Of a DNA stretch of 64,000 nucleotides, positions 1,198 to 58,537 are shown one piece after another. The notes beneath the pieces are model-generated. The model ran no database searches. It was not told the DNA's origin and was given only the letters and a program-made list of their open reading frames with translations. The DNA lies in NCBI RefSeq assembly GCF_964213995.1, contig NW_027590123.1, forward strand, positions 124,001 to 188,000, written 5' to 3'. The stretch comes from Mustelus asterias (Eukaryota). A program made the position numbers and the translations under genes. Position 1 is the first letter of the stretch, and every line of letters starts with the position of its first letter.

Positions 1198-1430
1198 CCA
1201 CTCGTGAACTCGCTGGTGTACCAATAGCTGAGATGAAAGACTGAATCTCTTCTCACACACAGAACAGCTGAACGGTCTCTCCCCAGTGTGAATTCCCTGG
1301 TGTGTCTGCAGGCAGAATAACCGAGAGAACCCCTTTCCACACACAGAGCAGGTGAACGGTTTCCACCCAGTGTGAACTCGCTGGTGTGTCTGCTGGCTGG
1401 ATGAATCACTGAACCGCTTCCCACACAGAG
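1198..1430 (-). pseudogene. Out-of-frame C-terminal fingers 13-15 of ZNF-1
   Basis: [18 protein letters not shown]...LLVHQRVHE lies in another frame; the family stop TGA has become TGG. Confidence 0.8.
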
Positions 1431-2458
1431 TAGGTGAAAGGCCTCTCCCCAATGTGAACTCGCTGGTGCCTCCGCAGGTGGGATGACTGAGTGAATCCCT
1501 TCCCACACAGAGAGCAGGTGAATGGTTTCTCCCCAGTGTGAACTCGCTGGTGTGTCCGCAGGCTGGATGAAGTTATGAATGCCTTCCCACACTGAGAGCA
1601 GGTGAACGGTCTCTCCCCAGTGTGAACTTGCTGGTGTGTCCGCAGGCTGGATGACCGAGTGAATCCCTTTCCACACTGAGAGCAGGTGAACGGTCTCTCC
1701 CCAGTGTGAACTCGCTGGTGTGTCCGCAGGCTGGATGAAGCTCTGAATCCCTCCCCACACTGAGAGCAGGTGAAGGGCCTCTCCCCGGTGTGAACTCGCT
1801 GGTGTCTCCACAGGTTGGAGGACCGAGTGAATTCCTTCCCACACAGAGAGCAGGTGAACGGCCTCTCCCCAGTGTGAACTCGCTGGTGTGTCCGCAGGTT
1901 GGATGAAGCTCTGAATCCCTTCCCACACTGAGAGCAGGTGAACGGCCTCTCCCCAGTATGAACCCGCTGGTGTGTCCGCAGGCTGGAAAACTGACTGAAT
2001 CCCTTCCCACACTGAGAGCAGGTGAATGGCCTTTCCCCAGTGTGAACTCGCTGGTGTCTCCACATGTTCGAGAACCGAGTGAATCCCTCCCCACACTGAG
2101 AGCAGGTGAATGGCCTCTCCCCAGTGTGAACTCGCTGGTGTGTCCGCAGGCTGGACAACTGACTGAATCCCTTCCCACACTGAGAGCAGGTGAATGGCCT
2201 CTCCCCAGTGTGAACTCGCTGGTGTGCCTGCAGATTGGATAACTGAGTGAATTTGTTCCCACACTGAGAGCAGGTGAACGGCCTCTCCCCAGTGTGAACT
2301 CGCTGGTGTGTCTGCAGGCTGGAAGACAGAGTGAATCCCTTCCCACACTGAGAGCAGATGAACGGCCTCTCCCCAGTGTGACTGCGCCGATGAGCGTCCA
2401 GCTGAGATGGGGCTTTGTATCTCTTCCCACAATCCACACATTTCCATGGTTTCTCCAT
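1406..2458 (-). CDS. C2H2 zinc-finger protein ZNF-1 (12 intact fingers, then a frameshift)
   Basis: ATG in CACCATGG at 2458 (MEKPWKC); 12 CxxC...HxxxH units with TGERP linkers; 2-bp loss near 1425. Confidence 0.85.
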
Positions 2459-2978
2459 GGTGCAGGTGTCCTTGCCGCTCTCTTGGGTGGACAATCAGTT
2501 GATGCCTCGTCTAGGCACAACACCAGTATGGTCTCTCCTCACTGTGAATGGTGTGATATTTATTCAGGCTGTGTAACTGGTTAAAGCTCTTTAGTCAGTG
2601 CATTGGAACACTCTCACTCGAGTGTGGCAGTGTGTTGGTGCTTTTCCAGTCACACTGATGTTTGAATTTCTTTTCAAATCGACAGACTGGACAAACATTT
2701 CCCCTTCAAGATTCAAAGGCCGATGATATTTCACTCCTAAGGAATATGACTGCCAGATCTAGACTTGACATTTGAGATTTCAGCCTGTAATTCCTCGTTC
2801 AATATCCTGTAAAATGAGTTAGAAATAGAAATAGAAATTCAGAACAGACAATTCTAGTTTCTATGGAACATTCTTTCCTCTCTCATTGTGCAAAAGCTGT
2901 AAATCTCCATCCCACACACTCTCCCTCCATTCTCACTCTGCTGTATCTGCTGTATGTCTTATGGTCTTATGGTCTTAT

Positions 2979-3038
2979 CTAATATTCACCCTCCCGATTC
3001 TCCTGAAGGTGCTGATTGAAGCTGATTGACAGATCCAT
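2979..3038 (-). other. Conserved 19-codon micro-ORF (MDLSISFNQHLQENREGEY*)
   Basis: ATG in GAGCATGG; homologous copies at 8162-8221, 47730-47789 and 50011-50070. Confidence 0.6.
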
Positions 3039-3282
3039 GCTCACTGCTTCCTGTCCTGGACACAGAAATCATAAGAAATTGGAGCTGCAGTTGGCATTCA
3101 GCCCATCGAACTGCCTCAACCTTTGATTGAGAATTGGCTGATCTACCTCACACTATTTCCATAGGACCAATATTTCCCAAACTATCCCCCCAGGTTGCTC
3201 AATGCCTCAAAAGTTACCAATCTCTCTCTTGAAAATATTTGATGACTGAGGCTCCACAGTCCTCTGGAGCGCAGAATTCAAA

Positions 3283-3690
3283 CACTTTACTCACAGACAA
3301 TGGACCAAGCTCCGCGCAGCCACTGACACCAGGCCCGGACTCTGATTGGCTGGAGGACCAGCGTCCATCCGGTCCTCCACGCGTTGCCATTGGCTAATCT
3401 ACCGCATGTGGACAATGAGTGGGCGGAACCCGAGCCCACGTGAGGATGGGCGGGGCTTTGACCGCCAGCTGCGCTGACCTGCTGTCCAATCCGCAGTGTG
3501 CTGCTTCTGTAACCAGTGATATTGCTGCCAATGGGACACTGTGTGCTGGGAACGCCCCTCTGAGTCATTGTGACGGCACAATGGAGCCCTGCCTGAATCA
3601 GCCAATAGCAATCACTCTACTCCGCGGTGACGTCTCCGGGTTCAGGCGCGCGGACCCGGGAGCCCCGCCCCCACCCATTGTTCCCCCTGT
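3283..3690. promoter_or_regulatory. CpG-rich promoter/first exon of ZNF-1
   Basis: CpG-rich; ATTGG/CCAAT and GGGCGG boxes; dyad at 3351-3379; minus-strand GTGAGT donor at 3294-3289; reverse-complement homolog of ~49130-49500. Confidence 0.7.
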
Positions 3691-3957
3691 CTGTACATTC
3701 CACACATTGTTAGTCCAGTCAGATAGACATATATCTGTCTGGGAGCCTGCATGGAGATTTCCAGCTGTGTCCAGGACACAGAGAGCTGAAAGTGTCCAAT
3801 ACACATCTCTTTAGCCTGTCTTGATGCTCTCTCCACTCACATTGTTTGTATCTTAAAGACTTGATTAGTTGTAAGTTTTCGCATTCCAAGCATTATTCAT
3901 GTAAATTGAGTTTGTGTCTTTCTATGCCCTGTTTGTGAACAGAATTCCCACTCACCT

Positions 3958-4293
3958 GGCGGCACGGTAGCACAGTGGTTAGCACTGCTGCTTCACAGCT
4001 CCAGGGACCTGGGTTCGATTCCCGGCTTGGGTCACTGTCTGTGTGGAGTTTGCACATTCTCTTCGTGTCTGCGTGGGTTTCCTCCGGGTGCTCCGGTTTT
4101 CTCCCACAGTCCAAAGATGTGCGGGTTAGGTTGATTGGCCAGGTTAAAAATTGCCCCTTAGAGTCCTGGGATGCGTAGGTTAGAAGGATTAGCGGGTAAA
4201 TATGTGGGGGTAGGGCCTGGGTGGGATTGTGGTCGGTGCAGACTCGATGGGCCAAATGGCCTCTTTCTGTACTGTAGGGTTTCTCTATTCTCT
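3958..4293 (+). mobile_element. V-SINE (HE1-like), full length
   Basis: tRNA head with A/B boxes, V-domain and CR1 tail; flanked by a duplicated ACCTG. Confidence 0.85.
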
Positions 4294-4329: not shown

Positions 4330-5204
4330 TGGCTTTTGCTACCAAATAAACCTGTTGGACTTTAACCTGGTGTTGTTAAACTTCTTACTGTGTTTACCAC
4401 AGTCAAACGCCGGCATCTCCACTCCAGGACAGGAAGCAGTGAGCATGGATCTGTCAATAAATAGAACGGACAAGAGTTTGATATGCAAAGTGCCAGCATT
4501 GAATCAGTGGACCGAATGACCCCATTCTCGACCCTAATGTCTTGACTGATTTAAAGAGAGAAATTTCAGCTGCTCCACTCTCTCCAACTAACTGAATTGC
4601 CTCATCATGAAATCGTACACTGCAGAAGAGGCCCTTCAGCGCATCGAGTCTTCACCGACACGCAAGAAACACCTGACCTCCCACCGAATCCCATTTACCA
4701 GCACCTGGCCCATAGCCTTAAATGTTCTGACTTGCCAAGTGCCGATCCAGCTACTTTTTAATGATGTGAGTTGCCATTCGTGCAAATCTCCTCTGCACCC
4801 TCTCTAAGAACTTCACATCTTCCCGAAGGTCTGGGGCCCATAAATAGGGTTCCATTCTCGAGAGATAGAATTGAACAGCAGGGATGTTATATTCAAAAAT
4901 TGGCCCACAATAATACCACTTTACACAAGTAAAAAATCAAAACAAACTAGATTGTAAACTTCATCTCTGAATTTTTTTGTTATATTCCATAACTTAATTA
5001 CTTTTATTTGATGAGTTTTTTTAGGGATGGATAACTTCTGTTCTTTATAAACTGCTTCACTCATTTTGTTGATTCTACATGTTCTCAGAGAATCAGAACC
5101 CAGACTTTATCATCCTTATCCTTTTTCCCCTTTTGCCACCACTCCCTCTGTTTTGCGGGAGGGTCGTGGGGTTTCCAATCAGAACTAATCATTTTATCAG
5201 AAAA

Positions 5205-5380: not shown

Positions 5381-6034
5381 TAATTTTATCAATAAGTTTC
5401 TTGTTCTTAGTTTCCAAATAGCAGGTAAGAGCTCTGATTTTTCACTGGCCATGCTTGGGTAGGATTATAACCATTAGAATCTACTCTCAGAGGTCTGCTT
5501 TTCAGTCCAGTGCGACTTGGAGTATACCGTCACTTCACTGAATATCGGATCACAAGTCCCTCACAGTTCTGATCACAAATTTGGGATAAAATAATTTAAA
5601 CAATGCCTGAGAACGCTTTTTAACTAACTATCTACCACTGTTTGTTGATTGGTCAGACCCCCTTTTTACAGATTCAGGAATCTCAGCCACTGAACACCAG
5701 CCGGTCCTGGAATAAGTTTAATTCTAACTCATTCTGAGTAAATATTCTCACCAGGTCCTCTGTCGGGGCCCTGCGAAGCAGCTTTAATGGTCTGTGATTG
5801 CAGAAACTGAGCAGTCACAGGAATGTGGTCAAGATAGTCCAGTCCCATAATGCCTCACATTCAATCTGCAGTCCTTCAATTATAACAGAATATGTGGCTG
5901 TATGTAGCTGCCTCGGCCATGGTCAACCCCAACACTGCCTTCCTGAACTGCTACAATGCCTGAGGTGTAAGTACACCGTAAGAAGTCTCAAAACACCAAG
6001 TTAAAGTCCAACAGGTTTATTTGGTAGCAAACGC

Positions 6035-6069
6035 CACTAGCTTTCGGAGCGCTGTTCCTTCATCAGGTG
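6035..6069 (-). ncRNA. Minimal hammerhead ribozyme motif
   Basis: Reverse complement reads CAC-CTGATGA-A-GGAAC-agc-GCTCC-GAAA-GC-TA-GTG. Confidence 0.65.
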
Positions 6070-6120
6070 AGTGGGAGTTCTGATTATAAAAAATCCTGTT
6101 TTGTGAACAGAACTCCCACT

Positions 6121-6155
6121 CACCTGACGAAGGAGCAGCGCTCCGAAAGCTAGTG
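6121..6155 (+). ncRNA. Minimal hammerhead ribozyme motif
   Basis: CAC-CTGACGA-A-GGAGC-agc-GCTCC-GAAA-GC-TA-GTG, with stems I and II fully paired. Confidence 0.75.
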
Positions 6156-7007
6156 GCGTTTCCTACCAAATAAACCTGTTGGACTTTAACTTGTTGTCAG
6201 ACTTCTTACTGTGTTTACCCCAGTCCAACACCAGCATCTCCAGGTTGTGTAAGTACATCCACAGTGCTGTGAGGGAAAGATTTCCAGCTACACATTCCAG
6301 ACTTTCACTGGACTGTAGGTGGATACCAGATTGAGATACTCCATTCAACCATACCCAAGGTGAGTTATTCCAATTCCTTTATTGTCCAGGACAATATATT
6401 CACAATATCTTTAAAACAGAATTTAAACATTCCCATTTGATTTCAGGTACGAACATATTCTGTTAGTTTGTTCTTTATTGTCAATGTCAGGCTGGGGTTG
6501 TTCCCCTTGGAGCAAAGGACAAGATTCTGACAGGTTTAGATAAGGTGGACAAAGAAAAGCTGTTCCCATTAGCTGATGGGAGAAGGAGAGGGGGTCACAG
6601 ATATAAAGTTTCGGGTCAGAGATGTAGGGGGGGATGTGAGGAAGAATATTTTGATGCAGCGAATGGTAATGACCTGGAACTCGCTGCCTACGAGGGTGGA
6701 GGAAGTGGAGACAATAAACAATTACAAAGGAAATTGGATGGGCATTTGGGAGGTTTCAAACAGAAATGCTGACTAAATATCTCTGATCTTCCTCACACCC
6801 TGTCACCCTGTGATCCTAGAGAAATTTGAAACCATGTATTCGCAACAAGACTCAAAGAGCATCAGCCCACTGGAGGCCAAGTTGTGAGACTGGTCAGTCC
6901 AGCAGAAAGAAACCCTCCGACCCTCCCCATTGACCAACTGTGAGAATGAACAAAATGCAGTCCTGGATGTAATTGAGAGCAGAAACAATAACAGCAGAAT
7001 CCAACCC

Positions 7008-7675
7008 TGTGAACTTGTTGGTGTCTCAGCAGCTGGGATGAAATTCTGAACCCTTTTTATACACTCAGCAGGTGGACAGTTTCTCCCCAGTGTAACCTCT
7101 CTGATGTCTCAGCAGGTGGGATCACTGAGTGAATTCCTTCCCACACTGAGAGCAGGTGAATGGCCTCTCCCCATGTGAATTCGCTGGTGTCTCTGCAGGC
7201 TGGATGAAGCTCTGAATCTCTTCCCACACTGAGAGCAGGTGAATGGCCTCTCCCCAGTGTGAACTCGCTGGTGTTTCCGCAGGTTGGATAACTGAGTGAA
7301 TCCCTTCCCACACTGAGAGCAGGTAAACGGCCTCTCCCCGCTGTGAACTCGCTGATGTGTCCGCAGGACGGATGACCGAGTGAATCCCTTCCCACACTGA
7401 GAGCAGGTAAACGGCCTCTCCCCGCTGTGAACTCGCTGGTGTCTCTGCAGGTCGGATGACCGAGTGAATCTCTTCTCACACTGAGAGCAGGTGAACGGTC
7501 TCTCCCCAGTGTGAACTTGCTGGTGTGCCCGCAGGACGGATGACTGAATGAATCCCTCCCCACACTGAGAGCAAATGAATGGCCTCTCCCCAGTGTGGTT
7601 GCGCCGATGAGCATCCAGCAGACATGGGGCTCTGTATCCCTTCCCACAGTCCGCACATTTCCATGGTTTCTCCAT
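7008..7675 (-). pseudogene. ZNF-2, truncated C2H2 gene (6 intact fingers, then a frameshift and stops)
   Basis: ATG at 7675; 1-bp deletion near 7172; downstream fingers contain TGA; upstream donor is decayed and the promoter is replaced by CR1/Tx1 sequence. Confidence 0.75.
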
Positions 7676-8161
7676 GGTGCAGGTGTCCTTACCTCTCTCT
7701 TGGGTGGACAATCAGCTGAAGCCTCGTCCACACACAGAACACGAGTACAGTCTCTCCCCACTGTGAATGGTGTGATATTTATTCAGGCTGTGTAACTGGT
7801 TAAAGCTCTTCAGTCAGTGCACTGGAACACACTGACTCGAGTGTGGCCATGTGTTGATGCTTTTTCAGTCAGATTGATGTTTGAAATCTTTTCAAATTTC
7901 CTTCCAGATTCAATGGCCGATGATATTCACGTCCCAAGGAATATGACTCTGCCAGATCTCGATGTGACGTTCGAGATTTTAGCCTGTGATTCCTCTTTCA
8001 ATATCCTGTAAAACAAGTTGACACAAGTCATCACTGTCAGTACAGGATCGAAATTCAGAACAGCCAATTCCAGTTTCTATGGAACATTCTTTCTCTCTCA
8101 TTCCCCAAAAGCTGTAAATCTCCATCCCACACACTCTCCCTCCATTCTCACTCTGCTGTAT

Positions 8162-8221
8162 CTAATATTCACCCTCCCAATTCTCCTGAAGGTGCTGATT
8201 GAGGCTGATTGACAGATCCAT
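8162..8221 (-). other. 19-codon micro-ORF (MDLSISLNQHLQENWEGEY*)
   Basis: Identical to 50011-50070. Confidence 0.6.
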
Positions 8222-8469
8222 GCTCACTGCTTCCTGTCCTGGACAGAGAGAGCTGAAAATTTCCATGCAAACTGCCAGACAGATCTATGCCCATATGACT
8301 GGAGTAAAAATGTGTGGAATATACCGACTGGATTCACTTCCTTTCCCTTCAGTTGCTGCAAGTCCCCAATTTCCCCCAGAATGAGAAAAGAAATGGAAAG
8401 GGGGAAACATTGATTTCCTCCCAGGTGTTGCCATCTTTTTAGGTCAAACCAAATAAACTAACTCAGATC

Positions 8470-8779: not shown

Positions 8780-9600
8780 AGGACAAAGTAAAAGGGGCAG
8801 CTCCCCAAAAAGGAGGGGGAACAGCCCGAACAGAAATCAAAATACAAAGGAAACTTAAAAACATCAAATTAAAATGTGATTATTAGGGTCAATAATGCAC
8901 CCCAACCCCTGCGGTGCCCAGCGGGCGCGGAAGTCGTCAACCGCGCCCGTGGACACCGCATGCTCCCTCTCCAGGGACACCTGGCCGCGAACGTAGCCGC
9001 GGTAGAGGGGAAGACAGTCAGGATGGACGGCCCCCTCGATCGCCCGCTGCCTGGACCGGTAAATGGTGCGTATCGCCAGGAGCAGGTTCACGAGGAGGTC
9101 GCCATCCCGACCCTCCCCTCTCCGCACCGGGTGTCCGTAGATCAGGAGCATGGGACTGAAGTGCAAACAAAACACCAATAAAAGGTTCTTTAGGAAAACA
9201 TAAAGGGAGTGCAGCCTAAGACACTCAACATAGACATGGTCCACGGACTCCACAAGGCCGCAGAAAGGGCAGTCTTCGGAGCCCGTGAACCAGTGAATCC
9301 TACGGTTGTGCGGAACTGCTGCATGCATCACCCTCCACCCCAGGTCCCCGACGTAATTGGGGGAGATCCCTCCATAGAGGGACCTCCAGCGGGGACCTCC
9401 GCTGCCCGGCGGCAACAAGGCCCGCCAAGGTGTATCCGGGCGACAGGCGAGGAGGCAGTAGTGGAGGGTGTGCAGCAGCAGCCCGCACAGGAAACGCCTC
9501 CGCGCAGTAGAAAAAGGCACGGAGGGCATTTCCGCGAGGCGGCTCAGGCTGTGGGGCACCTCACCCAGGCTTTGGGCCAATGTGGAATTCCGTCCAAACA
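8780..9600 (-). mobile_element. L1/Tx1-clade LINE 3' fragment (C-terminal zinc knuckle)
   Basis: ORF 8864-9580 contains W..LY...DLGWRVMH...CPFCGLVESVDHVYVEC; the same 3' end occurs at 57165-57360. Confidence 0.75.
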
Positions 9601-9624
9601 GGGGAACGCTCGGGCGGGATCAAG

Positions 9625-11839: not shown

Positions 11840-12590
11840 GGGATGGAGCAGCAGTATAAAATGAAGGGTACCATTCTTAGCAGTGTAGAGGATCAGAAGG
11901 ACCTTGGGGTCCGGGTCCATAGGACTCTTAAATCGGCCTCGCAGGTGGAGGATGCGGTCAAGAAGGCGTATGGCGTACTAGCCTTCATTAATCGAGGGAT
12001 TGAGTTTAGGAGTCGGGAGATAATGCTGCAGCTTTATAGGACCCTGGTTAGACCCCACTTGGAGTACTGCGCGCAGTTCTGGTCACCTCATTACAGGAAA
12101 GATGTTGAAGCCATTGAAAGGGTGCAGAGGAGATTTACAAGGATGTTGCCTGGATTGGGGGGCATGCCTTATGAGGATAGGTTGAGGGAGCTTGGTCTCT
12201 TCTCCCTGGAGAGACGAAGGATGAGAGGTGACCTGATAGAGGTTTACAAGATGTTGAGGGGTCTGGATAGGGTGGACTCTCAGAGGCTATTTCCAAGGGC
12301 TGAAATGGTTGCTACGAGAGGACACAGGTTTAAGGTGCTGGGGGGTAGGTACAGGGGGGATGTCAGGGGTAAGTTTTTCACTCAGAGGGTGGTGGGTGAG
12401 TGGAATCGGCTGACGTCGGTGGTGGTGGAGGCAAACTCGTTGGGGTCTTTTAAGAGACTTCTGGATGAGTACATGGGATTTAATGGGATTGAGGGCTATA
12501 GATAGGCCTAGAGGTGGGGATGTGATCGGCGCAACTTGTGGGCCGAAGGGCCTGTTTGTGCTGTGGCTTTCTATGTTCTATGTTCTATGT
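11840..12590 (+). mobile_element. Young 5'-truncated CR1 LINE
   Basis: Uninterrupted 220-aa ORF2 C-terminus (LVRPHLEYCAQFWSP...RGDLIEVYK) and a (TTCTATG)n tail. Confidence 0.9.
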
Positions 12591-13803: not shown

Positions 13804-14982
13804 TCACTCGTGAACTTGCTGGTGTCTCAGCAGGTGGGATGAAACTCTGAATCTCTTCCCACACTGAGAGCAGGTGAACGGCCTCTCCCCAGTGTGAACT
13901 CGCTGGTGTGCCCGCAGGTTGGATAACCGAGTGAATCCCTTCCCACACTGAGAGCAGGTGAATGGCCTCTCCCCAGTGTGAACTCGCTGGTGTGTCCGCA
14001 GGGTGGATAACCGAGTGAATCCCTTCCCACATTGAGAGCAGGTGAATGGTTTCTCCCCAGTGTGAACTCGCTGGTGTGCCCGCAGGTTGGATGACTGAGT
14101 GAATCCCTTCCCACACTGAGAGCAGGTGAACGGCCTCTCCCTAGTGTGAACCCGCTGGTGTGTCAGCAGGCTGGATGACCGCGTGAATCCCTCCCCACAC
14201 TGAGAGCAGATGAATGGCCTCTCCCCAGTGTGAACCCGCTGGTGAGCCCGCAGCTCGGATGACCGAGTGAATCCCTTCCCACACTGAGAGCAGGTGAACG
14301 GTCTCTCCCCAGTGTGAACTCGCTGGTGTATCCGCAGATCAGATGACCGAGTGAATCTCTTCCCACACTGAGAGCAGGTGAATGGTTTCTCCCCGGTGTG
14401 AACTCGCTGGTGTTTCTGCAGGCTGGATAACTGAGTGAATCCCTCCCCACACTGTGAGCAGGTGAACGGCCTCTCCCCAGTGTGAACTCGCTCGTGTGTC
14501 AGCAGACTGGATGACCGAGTGAATCCCTTCCCACACTGAGAGCAGGTGAATAGCCTCTCCCCAGTGTGAACTCGCTGGTGTGTCCGCAGCTCAGATAACT
14601 GAATGAATCCCTTCCCACACTGAGGGCAGGTGAATGGCCTCTCCCCAGTGTGAACTCGCTGGTGTCTCTGCAGGTTGGATAACTGAGTGAATCCCTTTCC
14701 ACACTGAGAGCAGGTGAATGGCCTCTCTCCAGTGTGAATTCGCTGGTGTCTCTGCAGGTGGGATGACTGAGTGAATCCCTTCCCACACTGAGAGCAGGTG
14801 AATGGCCTCTGCCCAGTGTGAACTTGCTGGTGTATCCGTAAGCTGGATAACTGATTAAATCCCTCCTCACACTGACAGCAGATGAACAGCCTCTCCCCAG
14901 TGTGGCTGCGCCGATGAGCTTCCAGCAGGGATGGGTATCTGTATCTCTTCCCACAGTCCACACATTTCCATGGTTTCTCCAT
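13804..14982 (-). CDS. C2H2 zinc-finger protein ZNF-3 (14 fingers)
   Basis: ATG at 14982 in CACCATGG; 392 aa = 14 x 28; ends HE-TGA; acceptor TTTTACAG with exon start at 15333. Confidence 0.9.
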
Positions 14983-15426
14983 GGTGCAGGTGTCCTTGCC
15001 TCTCTCTTGGATGGACAATTAGTTGAAACTTCGTCCACACACAGAACAAGATTACAGTCTCTACCCGCTGTGAATGGTGTGATATTTATTCAGACTGTGT
15101 AACTGGTTAAAGCTCTTAAGTCAGTGCATTGGAACACTCTCACTCCAGTGTGGCAGTGTGTTGATGCTTTTTCACTCACACTGACATTTCAAATTTTTTC
15201 AAATCGACAGACTGGACAATCATTTCTCCTTCTGGATTCAAAGTCCGATGATATTGAGTTCCCAAGGAATATGACTCTGCCACGTCGAGACGTGACGTTT
15301 GAGATTTCGACCTGTGATTCCTCTTTCAATATCCTGTAAAATGAGTTTCCAAAAGTCATCAGTGTCAGTACAGGATAGAAATTCAGAACAGACAATTTCT
15401 ATGGAACATTCTTTCCTCTCTCATTC

Positions 15427-16570: not shown

Positions 16571-16927
16571 CGGTGGCTGGGAGGATTTGGAAACACTTTG
16601 TGGATCCGCAAACCCTTCAGAATCATTGTCAGCTCCCTGGTTTGCAGCTGCGGGGCTTCTCCCTCCCTCCCTCCCGGGAACAGGCCCAGGTTAACGGCCC
16701 CATCCTGGCTCAGCCACTGGAGGATGGTTCACATCAGAGGATGGGGGAGGGGGACAATAAATAAGAGGTTACACTTTGGCCTCAAATCAATGAGGACTCT
16801 GATCTCTGGGAAGGAAGGAAACCCTGGGAGGTGGGCGGGGAGGATTCACAAACACCCGCTGGAGGCCCCAATAAGACCCATTGGTTTTATTGTCAGTCTG
16901 CAGACAGGAGCTGGAGAACTGAACCCA

Positions 16928-17205: not shown

Positions 17206-17710
17206 CCACATCAAGAACTGAACCCAGACAGGAGAGGGAGGGAGAAAACTGGGAGTGGAGGGAAGAAATGGTGGAGATGTTGAGATGGGTTTGGATTTCA
17301 GTCCAGGGGAGGAGGTAGAGTGTGTGGGACGGGGATTTATAGATTTGGGGGAACAAGAGAGGAAAATATGTTCCAGAGAAACTATGAATTGTCTGTTCAG
17401 AATTTCTATCCTGCACTGACAGTGATGGTATTGGTAAACTGTTTTTGCAAGGTATTATGAAGCAGGATTTCCAGATGTGAAACTCAAACCAAACTTCACA
17501 TCAAGATCTGTTTCAGTGATTTGATTCGTCAGAAACTGAATATCGTCAGCCTTTGTCTCCAGAAGGAGAAATGTTTATTCTGTCTGCGGGCAAAGATTTC
17601 AAACATCAGTGTGACTGAAAAAGCACCTAGACACACACACCTGTGAGTTTCCAATGTGCTGAATGTGGAAAGTGGTTTAAAAAGTCTGAAAAATAATCAC
17701 ATCATTCTCA

Positions 17711-19021
17711 GTGAGTAGTGACCCGACTCATATTCTGTGTAAACGTGGCTTCAACTCATCATCCAACCTGGAGTCACACGAGGATACCCGCTCCACAGAG
17801 AAACCATTGAAATGTGGGGACTGTGGGAGGGGATTCAATTACCCGTCCGAATTGGATATTCATCGTCGCATTCACACTGGAGAGAGGCCGTTCACCTGCT
17901 CTGAGTGTGGGAAAGGATTTGCTTACTCATCCAGCCTCTATACACACCGGCGTGTTCACACCGGTGAGAGGCCATTCGCCTGCCTCGAATGTGGGAGGGG
18001 ATGTCATGCTATATCAAGCCTCCTGATTCACCGGCAGGTTCACTCCGATCAGAGACTGTTTCAGTGTTCTGAATGTGAGAAAAGCTTTAAAAGCACAAAG
18101 GACCTCCTGAGACACCAGCGCACTCACATGGCGGTGAGACCGTTCACCTGCTCAGTGTGTGGGAAGGGATTCACTCAGTCATCCCACCTTCTGACACACC
18201 ATCTTGTTCACACTGATCAGAGACCATTTCAATGTTCTGACTGTGAGAAGAGATTTAAAAGTAAAAATGATTTACAAGTCCATCAGCGCACTCACACTGG
18301 GGAGAAGCCATTCACCTGCTCCGTGTGTGAGAGGAGATTCGGACGTTTATCCCAGCTGCAAACACACCAGCGAGTTCACTCTGATAAGAGACCATTTCAG
18401 TGTTCTGACTGTGAGAAGAGCTTTAAAAGTAAACAGGATTTGGTGACACACCAGCGAGTTCACACTGGGGAGAAACCGTTCACCTGCTCGGTGTGTGGGC
18501 TGGGATTCACCCATTCATCCCACTGTCTGAGACACCAGCGAGTTCACACCGGGGAGAAGACATTTATTTGCTCTGTGTGTGGGAAGGGATTCACTGATTC
18601 GCCCCACCTTCTGATACACGAGCGAATTCACACTGGGGAGAAACCCTTCGCTTGCTCCACATGTGGGAAACGATTCACTCAGCCACCCCAGCTCATTGCA
18701 CATCAACTGGTCCACACTGATCAGAGACCTTTTAAGTGTTCTGACTGTGAGAAAAGTTTTAAAAGCACGAAGGACCTGCTGAGACACCAGCAAATTCACA
18801 CTGGGGAGAGATCATTCACCTGCTCCATGTGTGGGAAAAGGTTCACTCAGTCATCCCACCTGCTGAGACACCAGCAGATTCACACAGGAGAGAGATCGTT
18901 CACCTGCTCCGTATGTGGGAAGAGATTTGCTCGGTCAGCCAATCTGCTGAGACACCAGCAAGTTCACAAGTCACTGCAGGGATTGGATTCTGCTGTTGCT
19001 GCTAACCCCATGCAGGACTGA
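17711..19021 (+). CDS. C2H2 zinc-finger protein ZNF-4 (14 fingers; no AUG before codon 140)
   Basis: Open 436-codon frame; the family start TMEKP reads STEKP; the family stop has become TCA, adding a short tail. Confidence 0.7.
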   Translation: MSSDPTHILCKRGFNSSSNLESHEDTRSTEKPLKCGDCGRGFNYPSELDIHRRIHTGERPFTCSECGKGFAYSSSLYTHRRVHTGERPFACLECGRGCHAISSLLIHRQVHSDQRLFQCSECEKSFKSTKDLLRHQRTHMAVRPFTCSVCGKGFTQSSHLLTHHLVHTDQRPFQCSDCEKRFKSKNDLQVHQRTHTGEKPFTCSVCERRFGRLSQLQTHQRVHSDKRPFQCSDCEKSFKSKQDLVTHQRVHTGEKPFTCSVCGLGFTHSSHCLRHQRVHTGEKTFICSVCGKGFTDSPHLLIHERIHTGEKPFACSTCGKRFTQPPQLIAHQLVHTDQRPFKCSDCEKSFKSTKDLLRHQQIHTGERSFTCSMCGKRFTQSSHLLRHQQIHTGERSFTCSVCGKRFARSANLLRHQQVHKSLQGLDSAVAANPMQD

Positions 19022-24845: not shown

Positions 24846-25883
24846 TTAATTGTGAATTCGCTGGTGTCTCAGCAGGTTGGATGTCTGAGTAAATCCCATC
24901 CCACACACAGAACACGTGAATGGTCTCTCCCCGGTGTGAACTCGCTGGTGTGTCAGCAGGTTGGATGACTGAGTGAATCTCTTCCCACAATCATTGCAGA
25001 TGAACAGTCTCTCCCCAGTGTGAACTCGCTGGTGTCTTAGCAGTGCTGATGATTGAGTGAATCTCTTCCCACACCTGGAGCAGGTGAATGGTCTCTCTCC
25101 AGTGTGAACTCGCTGGTGTCTCAGCAGAATGTATGACTGAGTGAATCCTTCCCCACACTCAGAGCATGTGAACGGTCTATCCCCCGTGTGAGTGCGCTGG
25201 TGAACGGTGAGATGAGATGATCGCTTGAACCCAGTTCCGCAGTGAGACCACCTGAACGGTCTCTCGTCAGTGTGAACTTGTTGATGGTACATCAGTTCCT
25301 GAGAGGTTTTATAACACTTCCCACAGCCCAGACATTTAAACGGTCTCTCGTCAGTGTGATTTCTTTGGTGTGTCGTCAGGTTGGATAAATTAATAAATCC
25401 TTTCCCACACTCAGAGCAGGTGAACGGTCTCTGCCTAGTGTGAACTCGCTGGTGTGTCAGCAGGGTGGATTGGTGAGTGAATCCCTGCCCACAGTCAGAG
25501 CAGATGAAAGGTCTCTCCCCAGTGTGAATTCGCTGGTGTGTCAGCAGGGTGTATGATTCAGTGAATCCCATCCCACACATAGAGCAGGTGAATGGCCTCT
25601 GCCCAGTGTGTGTGCGCTGGTGTGTCAGCAGGGTGGATGACTTAGTGAATCCCTTCCCGCAGTCAGAGCAGGTGAACGGCCTCTCCCCTGTGTGACTGCG
25701 CTGATGAGTTTCCAGCTGGGATGGGTAATTGAATCCCTTCCCACAGTCCTCACATTTCCACGGCTTCTCCCCATCATGACTGCATTTATGTTTTGACAGG
25801 CCAGATGATCGATTGAATCCTTGTCCACACACAGAACACAAGTATGATTTATTTCCACTGTGAACGGTGCTTTTTCCTTCCAT
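24846..25883 (-). CDS. C2H2 zinc-finger protein ZNF-5 (MEGK type; 12 fingers, finger 8 has C>W)
   Basis: ATG at 25883 ([10 protein letters not shown]); acceptor TTTCACAG with exon start at 25989. Confidence 0.88.
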
Positions 25884-26629
25884 GTTCAAAATATGACAAT
25901 GTTCAGGTTACGATAAATTGGTCGACTTTATCAGCCCCTGATGTGATGTTTGGTTTGTTTCCCAATTGCAAATCGTCCTCTTCTAAACCCTGTGAAATTG
26001 ATTTGAAATAGAAAAAAAGGAGTGAGAAAGAACCTACAAAAACACAAAGGCAGGTTGTGAAATTGAGCTGAATGAATCTGATAATATGTGGGGCCAGCAC
26101 GAGGAAAAAGTGACCATGAAACATGCTTGATTCAATTGATGCACTCATGTGCTTCAGGGAAGGAAACTTGCCAACTGGTCTGGACTCTGCACTGAATCTC
26201 CAACAAAGCTTCCCACCCAAGTCCTATGCCCATAACCCCACATATTTATCACGTTACTTCCCCTAATATCTTGGGGCACTAAGAGGCAATTTAGCATGGC
26301 AATCCAGCTAACCTGCACATCATTGGACTGAGAGGAAACCGGAGCACCTGGATGAAAACCCACGCAGACAAGAGGGGACAGAGTCACACATGGCTGGAGC
26401 TGTGAGACAGCAGTGCTAACAACTTGCCACCCCTTTTCAAAGAACTGCAACAATTTTGAGGAATATCTAGGAATATTATATTTTGTTAAAGAGACTGTAT
26501 GATACAAATGATTGTATCGTTGCTCTGCCTCATCAGTAAGAAATTGGAAGTGAAAGAGCGAAGCAGTTTGATGGACAAGTTGTTCACATTCTGTCACTCG
26601 GGCGAATTTCAAAATCATTGCCCCTCATA

Positions 26630-29680: not shown

Positions 29681-30509
29681 CCAGTCACAAAAAAACACAC
29701 ATCAACTGTCATTCATCACTTCGTGCAACTGAGGCAATTTTGAATCCAAAATGTAACTTGCTCTTGGATCTTTATTTTGCTGCCCAGTCCACCATGTGGA
29801 ACCTTGTCGATATGGAGAGAACGTTTCCATTTGCGGGAGAATCCAAAACGGGGGCAGAAATACAAGATAGTTACTGTTAAATCCACTTAGGAAATAAGGA
29901 GATGTTATTTTACTCAGAATAATTAGAATGTGGAATTCATTACCAAAGGAAGTGGTTGTGGCAAAAGGCTGAGATCCTTTCAAAAGGAAACTAAACGAGT
30001 ACACGAGAGAGAGAGAGAGAGAGGAATAGAAAAACCAACTGAAAGATTGAGCTGAGGGAGATGCAATGGAGGAGAAGTGTGTGGAGTTTCAACACCAGCA
30101 GAGACAAGCTGGGCAGAATGACCTGTTTTTATTCTATATGTTCTATGTAATTTTATATAAACTCTATTGACAGGGTATTAGAAGAGGAGGATTTACAGAC
30201 AGGAAAGTAAAACCAATTATGAGGATCTTATCGTGACTCAATTTATCAGGACCTGAATATTTGAATGTGGAAGGAGAAATGTTTGTCTGTTCTGTCTGTG
30301 GGAGAAGATTTCAAATATCAATGTGACTGGAAAAGCACCGACACACACACACCGAGTGAGAGTGTTCCAGTGAGCTGACTGTGGAAAGACTTTTATCCAG
30401 TTACACAGCCTGAAAATCATTCACAGCGAGGAGAGATCGTACACATTCTGTGTGTGGACCAGGCTTCAACTGATCATCCAACCTGGAGAGACATAAGAAC
30501 AACTGCACC

Positions 30510-31436
30510 ATGGAGAAACCGTGGAAATGTGAGGACTGTGGGAAGGAATTCAAATACCAGTCACGGCTGGAATATCATCAACACACTCACACTGGGGAGA
30601 AACCATTCCCCTGCTCCACGTGTGGGAAGGGATTCACTCGGTCAACTGACCTTCTGAGACACCAGCACATTCACACTGAGGAGAGACCGTTCACTTGCTC
30701 CACATGTGGGAAGGGATTCATTAATTCATCTGATCTTCGGGTACACCAGCGAGTTCACACTGGGGAGAGACCATTCACCTGCACCGCATGTGGGAGGGAA
30801 TTCACTCAGTCAGCCCACCTGCTGACACACCAGCGAGTTCACACCGGAGAGAGACCATTCACCTGCTCTGTGTGTGGGAAGGGATTCTCTCGGTCGACCC
30901 ACCTCACTGCCCACCAACTGGTTCACTCTGATCAGAGATCTTTTCGCTGTTCTGACTGTGAGAAGAGCTTTAAAAGCAGGTACCAGATGCTGACACACCA
31001 ACGTACCCACACTGGAGACAGGCCATTCACCTGTTCCAAATGTGGGAAGGGATTCATTCATTCATCTGACTTTCTGATACACCAGCGAATTCACACTGGG
31101 GAACGACCATACGCCTGCTCCATGTGTGGCAAGAATTTCTCTCGATTATCCCGCCTTGCTGTTCACAAACTGGTTCACACTGATCTGAGACCTTTTAAAT
31201 GTTCTGATTGTGAAAAATGTTTTAAAAGCAAACGTGAGGTGCTGTCACACCAACGTACCCACATTGGGGAGAGGCCGTTCACCTGCTCCAAATGTGGGAA
31301 AAGATTCGCCAATTCATCCAACTTTCTGAGACACCAGCGAGTTCACACTGGGGAGAGGTTGTTTACCTGCTGTGTCTGTGGGAAGGGATTTGCTCAGTCA
31401 AACAACCTGGTTCGACACCAGCAAGTTCACAAGTGA
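30510..31436 (+). CDS. C2H2 zinc-finger protein ZNF-6 (11 fingers)
   Basis: CACCATGG start; 308 aa = 11 x 28; acceptor with exon start at 30174. Confidence 0.9.
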
Positions 31437-36843: not shown

Positions 36844-37713
36844 TTACTTGTGAACCTGTTGGTGCATCAGTAGGTTGGGAAACTTAGTGAATCCCTCTCC
36901 ACACTTGGAGCAGATGAACAGCCTCTCCCCAGTGTGAACTCGCTGGTGTCGATGAAGAGTGGATGACTGAGTGAATCTCTTCCCACACTTGGAGCAGATG
37001 AATGGTCTCTCCCCAGTGTGAACTCGCTGGTGTCTCTGCAGAGTGGATGACTGAGTGAATCCCTCCCCGCACTCTGAACAGGTGAATGGTTTCTCTCCAC
37101 TGTGAGTGCGTTGGTGTACAGTGAGATGTGATAAACGTCTGAATCCTGTCCCACAGTGTGAGCACCTGAACGGCCTCTCCTCAGTGTGAAGACGTTGATG
37201 GTACATAAGTTCCTGGGAAGTTTTAAAAGATTTCCCACAATCTGGGCATTGAAAAGGTCTCACGTCAGTGTGAACTTGTTGGTGTGTCATCAGGTTGGCT
37301 GAAAAAGTGAATCCCTTCCCACACTGAGAGCAGATGAATGGTCTCTTGCCGGTGTGAACTCGCTGGTGGGTCAGCAGGTTGGATGACTGAGTGAATCCTT
37401 TCCCACAATCGGAGCAGGTGAATGGTCTCTCCCCAGTGTGAGTGCGCCGGTGTGTCAGCAGGGTGGAAGATTTAGTAAATCCCTTCCCGCAGTCCGAGCA
37501 GGTGAATGGTTTCTCCCCGGTGTGACTGCGATGATGAATTTCCAACTGGGATGGGTAATCGAATCCCTTCCCACAGTCCCCACATTTCCACGGCTTCTCC
37601 TCAGTGTGGTGACATTGATGTTCTGACAGGCCAGATGGTTGGTTGAAGTCTCGTCCATACACAGAACATGTGTATAGTTTCTCCCCACTGTGAACAGGGC
37701 GTTTTCCTTCCAT
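36844..37713 (-). CDS. C2H2 zinc-finger protein ZNF-7 (MEGK type; 10 fingers, first has C>Y)
   Basis: Paralog of ZNF-5 (shared KTSQELMYH and [10 protein letters not shown] fingers); exon start at 37820. Confidence 0.88.
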
Positions 37714-38654
37714 GATTAAAATCCAATGATATTCAGGGTACGATAAAATAATTGACTCTCAGATTTTGATGTGATGTTTAGTTTCCTGTTCCACGACTGC
37801 AAACCTTCCCTTCTGTTACTCTGAAAAATTGATTTAAAACAGAAAAAAGGAAGTGAGAGAGAACCCCCCAAACACAAAGGCACGTTGTGAAATTGAGCTG
37901 AATGAATCTGGGGCCGGCACGAGAAGAAAGTGACCATGAAAGCTGCTGGATTGTTGTAAAAACCCAACTGATTCACTAATGTCCTACAGGGAAGGGAACC
38001 TACCACCTGGTCTGGACAAGACTTTGGCCTCTGAGGGAGGAGAAGGAGGGAGAGAGGGAGGAAGAGAGAAGTGGAGAGGCAGGAGGCGAAGAAGAGGGAT
38101 TTTATACATAAACCACTCAGCCAGAACTTTGACCGAATCATTAAACACTGAACCTCCTCACCTCAAAGGACCAGGGCAGCGGGATTATGTGAACACTATC
38201 ACCTGCAAGTTCTCCAACACATACACTGCACTGACTTGTCTGACAATCCACTTGCATATTAGGAAGTACAAAGCCATTGCCTTCAGTCTCTTCTACAAAC
38301 TCCATCCCCTGGACATGGACTCCATCCCTCCCACTGGTAATGGTCTGAGGCTCAACCAGACTGTTCACAGCCAGGGAGTATTTTGTGTAACTGAGATGAG
38401 CTTCCAACCACATATCAACATCACCCAGAGCATCTATTTCCACGTCACTGACGTCATTGACTCCACCCCAGTCTCAGCTGACCTGCGACTGAAACAATCA
38501 TTCTTTCCTTTGTTACCTCTAGATGTAATTATCCAAACGCACTCCCAGCCGGCCTCCCACATTCAACCTCTCTGTAAACTTGAGCTCATCCAAACCTCTG
38601 CTGCCCATGTGCTTACTCACATCAAGTCTTGTTCACCCATCACCCCTGTGCGCA

Positions 38655-45854: not shown

Positions 45855-47288
45855 CTACTCTGTGTGAACTCGCCAGTGTTTCCGCAGGGAGGATGAATCA
45901 CTGAATATCTTCCCACATTGAGAGCAGGTGAACGGTTTCTCTCCAGTGTGGATTTGCTGGTGTGTCTGTAGTTTGAAAAGCCAAGAGAAGACCTTCCCAC
46001 AGTGAGAGCAGGTGAATGGTCTCTCCCCAGTGTGGATTCGCTGGTGTATCTGCAGGTTGGATAACTGAGTGAATCCCTTCCCACATTGAAAGCAGGTGAA
46101 TGGTCTCTCCCCAGTGTGAATGCGCTGGTGTATTTGCAGAGCGGATGAATCACTGAATCCCTTCCCACACTGAGAGCAGGTGAATGGCCTCTCCCCAGTG
46201 TGAACCCGCTGATGTCTCAATAGATTGGCTGACATGGTGAATCCCTTCCCACACACAGAGCAGGTGAATGGCCTCTCCCCAGTGTGAACTCTCTGGTGTG
46301 TCAGCAGGTGGGATGAGAGAGGGAATCTCTTCCCACACTGGGAGCAGATAAATGGCTTCTGCCCAGTATGAACTTGCTGGTGTCTCTGCAGGGTTGATGG
46401 ATCAGTGAATGCCTTCCCGCACACAGAGCAGGTGAACGGCCTCTCCCCGCTGTGAACTCGCTGGTGTCTCCACAGGTGGGATGAATCACTGAACCGCTTC
46501 CCACACTGAGAGCAGGTGAATGGCCTCTCCCCAGTGTGAACTCGCTGGTGTACCCGCAGGTGGGATGAATAACTGAATCCCTTCCCACACTGAGAGCAGG
46601 TGAACGGTTTCTCCCCAGTGTGAACTCGCCGGTGAGTCTGCAGGGAGGATGACTGAGTGAATCCCTCCCCACACTGAGAGCAGGTGAACGGTTTCTCCCC
46701 AGTGTGAACCCGCTGGTGTATCCGCAGGTGGGATGACTGAGTGAATCCCTTCCCACACTGAGAGCAGGTGAACGGTTTTTCCCTGGTGTGAACTTGCTGG
46801 TGTATCAGCAGGGAGGATGAATCACTGAATCCCTTTCCACACTGAGAACAGGTGAACGGTTTCTCCCCGGTGTGAACTCGCTTGTGGGACTGTAGGAAGG
46901 ATAGCCGAGTGAATCCCTTCCCACACTCAGCGCACGTGAATGGCCTCTCCCCAGTGTGAACTCGCTGGTGTGTCTGCAGGTGGGATGACTGAGTGAATCC
47001 CTTCCCACACTGAGAGCAGGTGAATGGTCTCTCTCCAGTGTGAACTCTCTTGTGGCACTGTAGGAAGGATAGCCGAGTGAATCCCTTCCCACACTGAGAG
47101 CAGGTGAACGGCCTCTCCCCAGTGTGAACTCGCTGGTGTGTCAGCAGGTGGGATGACTGAGTGAATCCCTTCCCACACTGAGGGCAGGTAAATGGCTTCT
47201 CCCCAGTGTGAATGCGCTGATGGATTTCCAGTTGTGACGAAAACCTGAATTCCTTCCCACAGTCCCCACATTTCCATGGTTTCTCCAT
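45855..47288 (-). CDS. C2H2 zinc-finger protein ZNF-8 (17 fingers; 18th lost by a nonsense change)
   Basis: CACCATGG at 47288; TAG in the last linker; a decayed finger and the ancestral HK-TGA (45774-45776) follow. Confidence 0.9.
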
Positions 47289-47729
47289 GGTGCTGGTGTC
47301 CTTGTGTCTCTCCAAGTTGGACGATCAGTTGAAGCTTCATCCACACACAGAACGCAGGTACAGTTGCTCGTTTTTGTGAATGGTGTGATATTTCTTCAGG
47401 CTGTGTCACTGGTTAAAGCTCTTTCCACAGTCAGTTCACTGGAACACTCTCACTCGGGTGTGTGTGTGTCTCGGTGCTTTTCCAATCACACTGATGTTTG
47501 AAATCTTTTGAAACCGACAGACCGTGACTCTGTCAGATCGAGATGTGACATTTGAGATTTCTGTCTGTGATTCCTCCTCTTCTGATATCCTTTAAAAACA
47601 ATTTACAAAAAACATCACAGTCAGAACAGACAATTCTCGCTTCTATGGGAACATCCTTTCCTCTGTCATTAATGAAAATCTGTAAATCTCCATCCCACAC
47701 ATTGTCCCTCCATTCTCACGCTGCCGGAT

Positions 47730-47789
47730 CTAACATTCAGCCACCCAACACTCCTGATGGTGCTGATTCAGGATGAATGACAGATCCAT
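47730..47789 (-). other. 19-codon micro-ORF (MDLSFILNQHHQECWVAEC*)
   Basis: Diverged copy with the same start, length and stop. Confidence 0.55.
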
Positions 47790-50010: not shown

Positions 50011-50070
50011 ATGGATCTGTCAATCAGCCTCAATCAGCACCTTCAGGAGAATTGGGAGGGTGAATATTAG
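50011..50070 (+). other. 19-codon micro-ORF (MDLSISLNQHLQENWEGEY*)
   Basis: ATG in AACATGG; identical to 8162-8221. Confidence 0.6.
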
Positions 50071-50505
50071 ATACAGCAGAGTGAGAATGGAGGGAGAGTG
50101 TGTATGGGATGGAGATTTAGAGCTTCTGGGGATTGAGAATTGTTAGTTCTGAATTTCTATCCTGTACTGACCGTGATGGCATTTGTAAACTACATTTACA
50201 GGATATTGTGACAGGAGCATTTACTGACAGAAATCTCAGACGTGACGTTCTAGATTTGACAGAGTCACTTGATTCCTTGGGACCTGAATATCATCGGTCT
50301 TTGAATCTAGAAGGAGGAATGTTTGCCCAGTCTCACCCAAGTGAGAGTGTTCCAGTGCACTAACTGTGGAAAGAATATCAACCAGTTACAGAGGCTGAAA
50401 AACCATCACACCATTCATAGCGGGGACAGACTGTACATGTGTTTGTTGTGTCGATGAGGCTTCAACTGTTAAACTGACCTGGATTGATACAGCGAGACCT
50501 AAAAC

Positions 50506-51432
50506 ATGAAGAAACCGTGGAAATGTGGGGACTGTGAGAAGACATTCAAAGCTCCATCAGAGCTGGAAAACCATTGGCGCATTCACACTGGAGAGAGGCC
50601 ATTCATCTGCTCTCAGTGTGGGAAGGGATTCACTCAGTCAACCACCCTGCAGAGACACCAGCAAGTTCACACTGGGGAGAGGCCATTCATCTGCTCTCAG
50701 TGTGGGAAGGGATTCACTCAGTCAACCACCCTGCAGAGACACCAGCAAGTTCACACTGGGGAGAGGCCATTCACCTGCTCTCAGTGTGGGAAGGGATTCA
50801 CTCTGTCATCACACCTGTTGAGACACAAGCAAGTTCACACAGGGGAGAGGCCATTCACCTGCTCTCAGTGTGGTAAAGGATTCAGTAATTCATTCAACCT
50901 TCAGACACACCAGCGAGTTCACACTGGGGAGAGACCATTCACCTGTTCTCAATGTGGGAAGCGATTCAGTGATTCATCCAACCTGCAGACACACCAGCGA
51001 ATTCACACTGGGGAGAGACCGTTCATCTGCTCTCAGTGTGGGAAGGGATTCACTCTTTTATGCAACCTGTTAAGACACAAGCGAGTTCACACCGGAGAGA
51101 AGCCATTCACCTGCTCTCATTGTGGGAAAGGATTCAGTGATTCTTCCGGCATGCAGACCCACCAGCGAGTTCACACTGGGGAGAGACCATTCATCTGCTC
51201 TGACTGTGGGAAGGGATTCACTCTGTCATCCCACCTGTTGAGACACCAGCGAGTTCACACCAGTGAGTGGCCCTTCTCCTGCTCTCGGTGTGGGAAGGGA
51301 TTTAATGATTCATCCAACCTGGAGAGACACCAGCGAGTTCACACTGGGGAGAGGCCATTCACCTGCTCTCAGTGTGGGAAGGGATTCACTCTTTTATCCA
51401 TCCTGTTGAGACACAAGCGAGTTCACAAGTGA
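50506..51432 (+). CDS. C2H2 zinc-finger protein ZNF-9 (11 fingers)
   Basis: MKKPWKC start; 308 aa; exon start at 50202 after TACTGAC...TTTACAG. Confidence 0.9.
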
Positions 51433-57360: not shown

Positions 57361-58030
57361 GTATTTGGTTGGCCAAAAAGATTGAATCTAAACATAAGTT
57401 TTTAGTCTAGCAGTTTACATCTAGATTTTCAGGGCTGCATCCTCGACAAGAAGCAGTGAGCATGGAGCTGTCAATCAGCATGAATTGTCACTCTCTGGGG
57501 AATTGGGAGGCTGAACATTGGGACAGCAGAGTGAGAACAGAGAGGGAATCTGTGGGATGGAGATTTACAACTTTACTTAGAATGAGAGAGGAAAGAATGT
57601 TCCACAGAAACTAGAATTGACTGTTCCGAATTTCTATTCCAACTGACGGTGATGACTTTTGTAAACTCCTTTTGCAGGACATTAGGAAGCAGAAAATTCA
57701 AAGCAGACGTCATGTCAAGACCAACCAGAATCACTCACTTCACTAGGAGCTGAATATCATCGGCCTTTGACTCTCAAAGGATAAATGTTTGTCTGTTCAG
57801 TTTGCTTCAAAAGATTTGAAACACCAGTGTGATTGGAAAAGCACCAAGACCCGCTGCACACACCCGAGTGAGAGTGTTCCAGTGAACTGACTGTGGAAGA
57901 GTTTAAAGTGGTGACAGAGTCTGTTAAAACCTCGCACCATTCACAATGCGGAGAGATAGTACATGTGTTTTGTGTTGATGAGGTTTTAGCTGATCCTTGA
58001 ACTTGGGAGAGGCACAAGGACACCTGCAGT

Positions 58031-58537
58031 GTGGAGAAACGGTGGAAATGTGGGGACTGTGGGAGGGGATTTTGTACACCCTCTGCACTGGAAACTCATC
58101 AACGCAGTCATGTCGGAGAGAGGCCGTTCACCTGCTCGGACTGTGGGAAGGGATTTGCGCAGCTGTCCAACTTACTGAGACATCAGCGAGTTCACACTGG
58201 GGAGAGACCGTTCACCTGTTCTGACTGTGGGAAGGGATTCAGTGATTCATCCAACCTGCAGTCACACCAGCGAATTCACACTGGGGAGAGGCCGTTCACC
58301 TGCAATGAGTGTGGGAAGGGATTCAGTCATTTATCTAATTTGCTGAGGCACCAGCGAGCTGACAGCAGGGAGAGAACTGCCACCTGCTCTCAGTGTGAGA
58401 AACGATTCCGTGATTCGTACACCCTGCGCTTACACCAGCGAGTTCACACTGGGGAGAGGCCATTCACCTGCTCCGACTGTGGTAAAGGATTCACTCAGTT
58501 ATCCAACCTGCTGAGACACCAGCAAATCCATAAGTGA
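58031..58537 (+). pseudogene. ZNF-10 (6 fingers; start changed to GTG; finger 4 lacks its last His)
   Basis: CAGTGTGGAGAAAC in place of CACCATGGAGAAAC; HQRADS; no CpG promoter directly upstream. Confidence 0.6.

Follow-up and report, generated by a model that had tools for sequence, protein, structure and literature searches.

How might a truncated zinc-finger gene come to found a gene family? In the KRAB-ZNF clusters of tetrapods, paralogs lie side by side with TGEKP-linked finger arrays, the spacer and the array share one last exon, fingers are gained and lost, and degenerate fingers occur (PMC2865497, PMC3126818), finger loss being common (PMC3126818). In human ZNF252, eleven complete and degenerate fingers lie in the 3' UTR after a stop codon, and KRAB has become uncoupled from the array (PMC2865497). 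The closest KRAB-less expansion is that of the cyprinid FiNZ-ZNFs, a lineage-specific group with a common 5' signature, an upstream exon and an array exon, set apart by a 28-aa domain that is both conserved and translated (Wells et al. 2023; PMC10547256). FiNZ is described there as cyprinid-specific, and neither 'shark' nor 'cartilaginous' occurs in the main text of that paper (PMC10547256).

The window analysed here, a 64-kb stretch of DNA from the shark Mustelus asterias, holds a cluster of tandem C2H2 poly-zinc-finger genes that shares all of the listed features of the KRAB-ZNF clusters, the single last exon being predicted. The cluster is built of C-x2-C-x12-H-x3-H repeats with TGEKP-type linkers, and its 117 finger motif matches are spread over 11 arrays (Table 1). 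The open reading frames of Z1 to Z10 (ZNF-1 to ZNF-10 in the numbering of the earlier note, a first reading of the same DNA) each encode 5-17 intact fingers, and the eleventh array (63627-63998, minus strand) is cut by the window end, its leader falling outside. Homology upstream of the paralogs, together with congruent leader and array trees, indicates that whole gene units were duplicated, and the relatives matched by protein searches are from sharks and rays. The 3' flanks of Z1 (1-1200) and Z2 (approximately 5860-7020) resemble copies of each other, which suggests a duplication unit of approximately 6 kb. The cluster is interspersed with other sequence: a 251-codon open frame with a weak zf-RVT match (8864-9619, minus strand, E 0.0017) that is likely a LINE fragment, further reverse-transcriptase-like fragments (11804-12505, 28034-28687 and 41130-42128) that we take to be CR1-like, and a presumably SINE-like repeat in two copies of opposite orientation (approximately 630-850 and 3955-4280).

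Table 1. Features of the zinc-finger cluster in the 64-kb window (positions count from the first nucleotide of the window; ends of fossil fingers are approximate)
Feature	Position	Strand	Remarks
Z1 ORF	1406..2458	-	350 aa, 12 intact fingers; 2 further fingers past late frameshift
Z1 ATG	2456..2458	-	predicted start, at Gly position of finger-3/finger-4 linker; context CACCATGG
Z1 fossil finger 3	2459..2536	-	stop TGA 2497-2495; second His gone
Z1 fossil finger 2	2537..2617	-	4-nt deletion common to Z1, Z2, Z3
Z1 fossil finger 1	2618..2698	-	EMF-motif ATG at 2698; stop TGA 2652-2650
Z1 fossil acidic spacer	2699..2806	-	exon head; predicted acceptor AG 2808-2807
Z1 predicted intron	2807..2989	-	GT-AG
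Z1 predicted upstream exon	2990..3055	-	66 nt; AUG at 3038 opens 18-19-codon uORF; open in spacer frame
CpG island	3201..3700	.	likely Z1 promoter
Z2	7109..8005	-	leader 8005-7676; ATG 7675; 188 aa, 6 fingers
Z3	13804..15333	-	leader 15333-14983; ATG 14982; 392 aa, 14 fingers
Z4	17451..19021	+	leader to 17794; ACA in place of ATG at 17795; finger-3 stop codon is TCA; 14 intact fingers
Z5 (MEGK type)	24846..25989	-	dead head 25989-25884; ATG 25883; finger 3 translated (CGA); 345 aa, 11 fingers
Z6	30174..31436	+	leader 30174-30509, finger 1 best preserved; ATG 30510; 308 aa, 11 fingers
Z7 (MEGK type)	36844..37820	-	dead head; ATG 37713; finger-3 codon CAA; 289 aa, 9 fingers
Z8	45855..47589	-	leader 47589-47289; ATG 47288; 477 aa, 17 fingers
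Z9	50202..51432	+	leader without finger 1; ATG 50506 in AAACATGA; 308 aa, 11 fingers
Z10	57678..58537	+	leader to 58030; GTG at 58031; 168 aa, 5 fingers

The earlier note had proposed that the leaders upstream of the arrays are decayed zinc fingers, about three to a leader, and this finger ancestry is confirmed. A finger profile was built from 97 of the 109 intact fingers in the window, leaving out 10 first WKC-type fingers, the MEGK first finger and one leader finger, and it matches two to three finger-register stretches in all eight MEK-type leaders, with best scores from 7.9 bits (Z1, the weakest) to 25.5 bits. For each of the eight leaders, none of 200 dinucleotide shuffles matched the best or the summed score, and with the same profile the highest scores were 1.2 bits for reverse complements and 2.7 bits for upstream 300-mers. 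Three leaders were submitted to Pfam zf-C2H2 (cut-off 25.2 bits, stops read as X), of which Z8 (29.5) and Z6 (27.2) pass and Z9 (15.6) fails. Like other degenerate C2H2 fingers, the leaders combine profile similarity with stops, frameshifts and lost ligands, among them the second histidine of fossil finger 3. The count of three is less general than the ancestry, because finger 1 has been deleted from the Z9 leader and its start is gone from those of Z2 and Z8. As to where the leaders begin, an acceptor-like site, TTTTACAG, does precede position 2806 in Z1 on the minus strand, and the six other leader intervals named earlier agree with predicted acceptors.

What lay in front of the fingers has also decayed. 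An acidic spacer of approximately 40 codons precedes finger 1 and is likewise fossil in the MEK-type leaders; a search of the ESM Atlas with the spacer gave no usable match. In gene models of the horn shark (P0060, P0160), of Mustelus (P0202) and of skates (P0191, P0204), the spacer is uninterrupted and continues in the frame of the MEGK-type array. An ancestor likely lost its first fingers, as had been claimed, and the loss was larger than claimed, taking the spacer too.

The breaks in the leaders are largely the same breaks. Finger 1 carries a TGA in 7/7 leaders that retain it, fingers 1 and 2 are mutually out of frame in the majority alignment (majority columns 245 nt), and a stop occupies the finger-3 codon in six of the eight MEK-type leaders. 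That codon is TGA in Z1, Z2, Z6, Z8 and Z10, TAA in Z3, TCA in Z4 and TGT in Z9, compared with CGA in Z5 and CAA in Z7, so the contrast first drawn between CGA in Z5 and TGA in the others holds for Z5 and for 5/8 of the others, with Z3, Z4 and Z9 departing from it. CGA in Z5 and CAA in Z7 are the pattern expected of CpG decay on the two strands, and the finger-3 stop would be derived from CGA by that route. Could the stops have arisen repeatedly at CpG hot spots after amplification, with no single truncated founder? The several states of the finger-3 codon (CGA, CAA, TGA, TAA, TCA, TGT) would suit such recurrence, as would the horn-shark model P0060, which is open at this codon inside a MEK-like gene. 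However, the copies also have the finger-1/finger-2 frameshift and the linker AUG in common, the finger-1 TGA has no CAA-type alternative in 7/7 leaders, and leader and array trees broadly agree, and we regard recurrence as very unlikely. The earlier suggestion that breaks and AUG were inherited before amplification is upheld by the sharing of stops, frameshift and AUG among paralogs and by the broad congruence of the two trees.

We consider it probable that the family founder lost its N-terminal reading frame, gained an AUG in a linker and was then copied together with its decayed spacer and three fingers, kept as a neutral 5' UTR. In such a founder, the acidic spacer and three C2H2 fingers would have been broken by stops and a frameshift, a new AUG in the finger-3/4 linker would have become the likely start, and the dead part would have been copied along as likely neutral 5' UTR. 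Stop codons in a last exon escape exon-junction-dependent NMD; with the leader predicted to lie in the same last exon as the array, its stops would escape too and the mRNA would survive. Leaky scanning, or reinitiation once short uORFs have been translated, would bring ribosomes to the AUG, and the resulting protein would consist of fingers only, lacking an effector domain.

The start context CACCATGG is found in five of the eight MEK-type genes, Z1, Z2, Z3, Z6 and Z8, and Z9 has its ATG at the same position in AAACATGA; the linker-derived ATG that the earlier note saw in these six genes is present in them, and the same position holds GTG in Z10 and ACA in Z4. Around the glycine codon, a purine at -3 and G at +4 are present in 91 of 101 intact linkers, so the Kozak flanks preexisted and the AUG alone had to arise. 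Since that codon is GGG in 64/82 linkers, reaching ATG takes two changes. An ACG intermediate is plausible, although none was seen, and could account for ATG, for ACA in Z4 and for threonine forms through CpG decay; a route through GTG or AGG is also possible. Judged from the sequence, translation would start at the linker AUG. A metagenome scan for the start motif gave 0 matches. Z4, with its 14 fingers, and five horn-shark threonine models all have no AUG, so either other starts must exist or these copies are silent. Nine codons upstream of the start position (17768-17797, plus strand), Z4 has a CTG in frame, flanked by A at -3 and by G at +4, and the horn-shark model P0181 has a methionine start at the place of this CTG.

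For Z1, the predicted order from the 5' end is a CpG island, a 66-nt exon, an intron, and a last exon comprising spacer, fossil fingers 1-3 and array. An isolated fragment of this predicted 66-nt exon lies on the opposite strand beside a repeat (approximately 4420-4460, plus strand), and the Z3 leader adjoins 5' sequence unlike that of Z1 and Z2. Further CpG islands lie between the head-to-head pairs Z3/Z4 (15401-16700) and Z8/Z9 (49051-49450) and are possibly bidirectional promoters. Contigs of four of 22 runs (from four organisms; the runs are guessed to be RNA and may be DNA) were aligned to 2380-3850. They cover the Z1 leader, and pieces from X3 and X14 run from fossil finger 3 across the ATG into finger 4; the finger-3 TGA appears in the loose-end contig consensus of X2, X3 and X14 (4, 5 and 19 contigs, from other organisms). 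Of the 15 joints inspected out of 83, none has GT-AG ends and none matches the predicted intron; these joints were read as unaligned paralog sequence. One X14 contig (depth 183) crosses the predicted acceptor unspliced; the little or no contig cover of bins 3080-3179 speaks neither for nor against the model. Given that no such joint is among those inspected, the unspliced contig and the guessed nature of the runs, the exon model is tentative, and the leader is best described as a presumptive 5' UTR, consistent with the contig data. The crude acceptor score was discarded as a locator, the predicted acceptor not being singled out in most genes.

Could the leader instead be mostly intron, with an unseen upstream effector exon spliced in just past the finger-3 stop and the ATG a mere internal methionine? 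No splice joint backs the predicted exon model, Z4 and the threonine-type horn-shark models keep their arrays with no AUG, and several NCBI models join the frame past the stop and ahead of the methionine. However, the entry points of these NCBI models differ and each follows unrelated sequence, and contigs continue from finger 3 into finger 4. By the crude, poorly discriminating measure, AG sites no more than 45 nt from the start reach 7.6-11.5, below the best site in 8/8 leaders. Pfam gave no KRAB, SCAN or BTB match (E<=0.05) for 150 of the 154 sense ORFs that measure 42 aa or more and lie in the 2.6 kb upstream of the ten genes, a search that short or distant exons would escape, and none of eight related shark and ray models has KRAB, SCAN or BTB at E<=0.01. 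We regard an intronic leader as unlikely.

Is the presumably untranslated front end of these genes decaying freely, and does the decay stop at the ATG? For eight paralogs, with pairs that are not independent, dN/dS in the fossil fingers is 0.76 (95% codon bootstrap 0.52-1.10), and 0.71 (0.46-1.12) in fingers 2-3 alone, compared with 0.46 (0.29-0.70) in the first two coding fingers, an interval that overlaps that of the leader. Pairwise comparison, in which counts are likewise not independent, gives 107 indel events in fingers 1-3, 73% of them not multiples of three, and none in the coding part, where 64/64 zinc ligands of the first two fingers are kept. The divergence of leader and intron, a comparison already proposed, was measured as JC distance in the five genes whose introns are homologous, giving 0.27 for fingers 1-3, 0.33 for the spacer, 0.19 for the intron and 0.14 for the upstream exon. 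The leader, lying above both intron and upstream exon, is therefore not the constrained part; its dN/dS, its off-frame indels and a JC distance not below that of the intron all accord with neutral behavior. Upstream exon and intron are closer than the leader among paralogs (2807-3055, near 8005-8240, 47590-47810, 49990-50200 and 57450-57680), for which constraint, gene conversion and bias in selecting the subset are alternative explanations.

That the genes as a whole are pseudogenes decaying from the 5' end, with an incidental ATG, might be suspected from the late frameshifts in the Z1 and Z2 arrays and from the missing AUG of Z4 and Z10. Yet decay halts sharply at the ATG: the next two fingers show the absence of indels, the full set of ligands and the lower dN/dS given above, and the reading frames remain open for 168-477 codons. 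The main ORFs are not pseudogene-like, and we regard general decay as highly improbable, although the single copies Z2, Z4 and Z10 may be dying.

The neutral reading must also be weighed against co-option of the fossil for translational control, in which output would be set by uORFs (18-19 codons from the upstream exon, or approximately 15 codons up to the finger-1 stop) or by UGA-C read-through. In 5/5 genes that keep the upstream exon, its uORF is retained and its AUG is flanked by A at -3 and by G at +4, this exon is the slowest-evolving part, and the finger-1 TGA is invariant (7/7), with stops persisting across shark orders. Special conservation of the finger-1 stop can be rejected, because 7/60 leader codons are equally invariant. 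The finger-1 AUG has been deleted in two of eight leaders (Z2 and Z8), uORF lengths vary, and frameshifts preclude read-through into the array in most copies. The persistence of the stops could plausibly be neutral given the low mutation rate of a shark, 7e-10 per base per generation (PMC10587355); at that rate, and with an assumed generation time of several years, neutral DNA would be recognisable after 200 Myr. Co-option for translational control thus appears improbable, and a neutral 5' UTR is the reading that we prefer.

The heads of the MEGK-type genes Z5 and Z7 are homologous to the MEK heads, with 13 of 16 comparisons beating all 300 shuffles; fingers 1-2 are absent, the head is joined directly to the tail of finger 2, and the ATG sits at the end of the spacer. 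It was correctly noted earlier that Z5 still translates the equivalent of finger 3, which is open in this gene, but it does not represent the intact ancestor, since fingers 1-2 are missing. Because MEGK genes have the common exon head, no fingers 1-2 and an AUG within the spacer, they would, in the simplest reading of the sequences, be the product of a second, separate truncation in which fingers 1-2 were deleted and an AUG arose in the spacer. A gain of two fingers by the MEK genes instead is less parsimonious.

How old is the truncation? The evidence from other sharks consists of gene models rather than genomic DNA. The finger-1 stop is precisely where the sawshark model P0143 ends, and the end of the white-shark model P0182 falls precisely on the stop of finger 3; the sawshark P0173 and horn-shark P0005 models begin with MEKPWKC, and the linker methionine is found internally in white- and basking-shark models. 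Among 18 MEK-family sites tallied, nine have Met, seven Thr (two in a skate model), one Ala and one Ile, and the horn-shark model P0060 retains Arg at the finger-3 stop position. These identical breaks suggest that the founder of the family probably lost its front and probably began translation at the new start codon. A protein with spacer and fingers 1-3 open into the array was found in 0/317 fetched proteins (21 with family motifs, the searches being crowded by unrelated zinc fingers), a weak sign of its absence, so the ancestral gene can only be inferred. The ENA proteins P0138 and P0208 were rejected as open fingers, since they have Trp at several stop positions, likely TGA translated as Trp. 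Several shark models (P0001, P0005, P0060, P0062, P0072 and P0224) fuse several zinc-finger genes through intergenic sequence, and some fused models read the leader in the wrong frame; these fusions are likely annotation artefacts, and wrong-frame reading of the leader would explain chimeric public gene models.

The sawshark is a squalomorph and the other sharks compared are galeomorphs, including the horn shark, which we take to be one. A 2026 preprint dates the group of sharks and rays except hexanchiforms to 256 Ma and places most order splits in the Early-Middle Jurassic (10.64898/2026.02.13.705779). Combining those dates with a state common to squalomorph and galeomorphs, the truncation is likely approximately 200-250 Myr old and would predate the squalomorph-galeomorph split: it appears to be old rather than local.

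Unlike in the KRAB-ZNFs, then, no KRAB or SCAN was found in the upstream ORFs searched for the shark genes, their spacer and first fingers are non-coding, and this non-coding front appears to be founder-wide rather than confined to a single gene. As in ZNF252, former fingers lie untranslated past an in-frame stop and the N-terminal domain has been lost, but the fossils of ZNF252 are 3', in one gene of one lineage (PMC2865497), whereas those of the shark genes are 5' of the ORF, require a new start, and are common to paralogs and to several shark orders. The 5' signature of FiNZ is a translated domain (PMC10547256), whereas that of the shark genes cannot be translated in these copies. We found no description of leaders of this kind in the literature searched, whose coverage excluded most subscription journals. 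More generally, an N-terminal truncation can be rescued by downstream initiation or by reinitiation after an early stop, and here too an in-frame AUG with a good context lies downstream of an early stop. Unlike in rescue generally, the shark AUG has been fixed as the likely normal start of a family, its Kozak flanks come from linker codons, and the event likely happened twice (MEK and MEGK). The single steps, a nonsense change, a downstream start and duplication, are ordinary, and the shark case is a variation on the known birth-and-death evolution of zinc fingers, notable for its age, 5' position, ready-made Kozak flanks and likely double origin.

The cluster shows how a truncated gene can found a large transcription-factor family. 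With Kozak flanks in nine-tenths of canonical linkers, finger arrays are prone to acquiring internal starts. As FiNZ does for the cyprinid family, the fossil leader would provide a diagnostic tag for the shark one, and it would also be a near-neutral clock attached to every paralog. A bolder and rather unlikely extension is that a major shark ZNF expansion runs on headless, fingers-only proteins made twice independently by internal starts (in linker and in spacer), with effector loss favoured and leader uORFs setting translation family-wide; were it true, headless proteins would be a way of obtaining sequence-specific chromatin binders without KRAB. The question raised is whether fingers-only proteins act on transposons, the lineage being one in which losses of KRAB gene families are reported to be enriched (PMC8455134).
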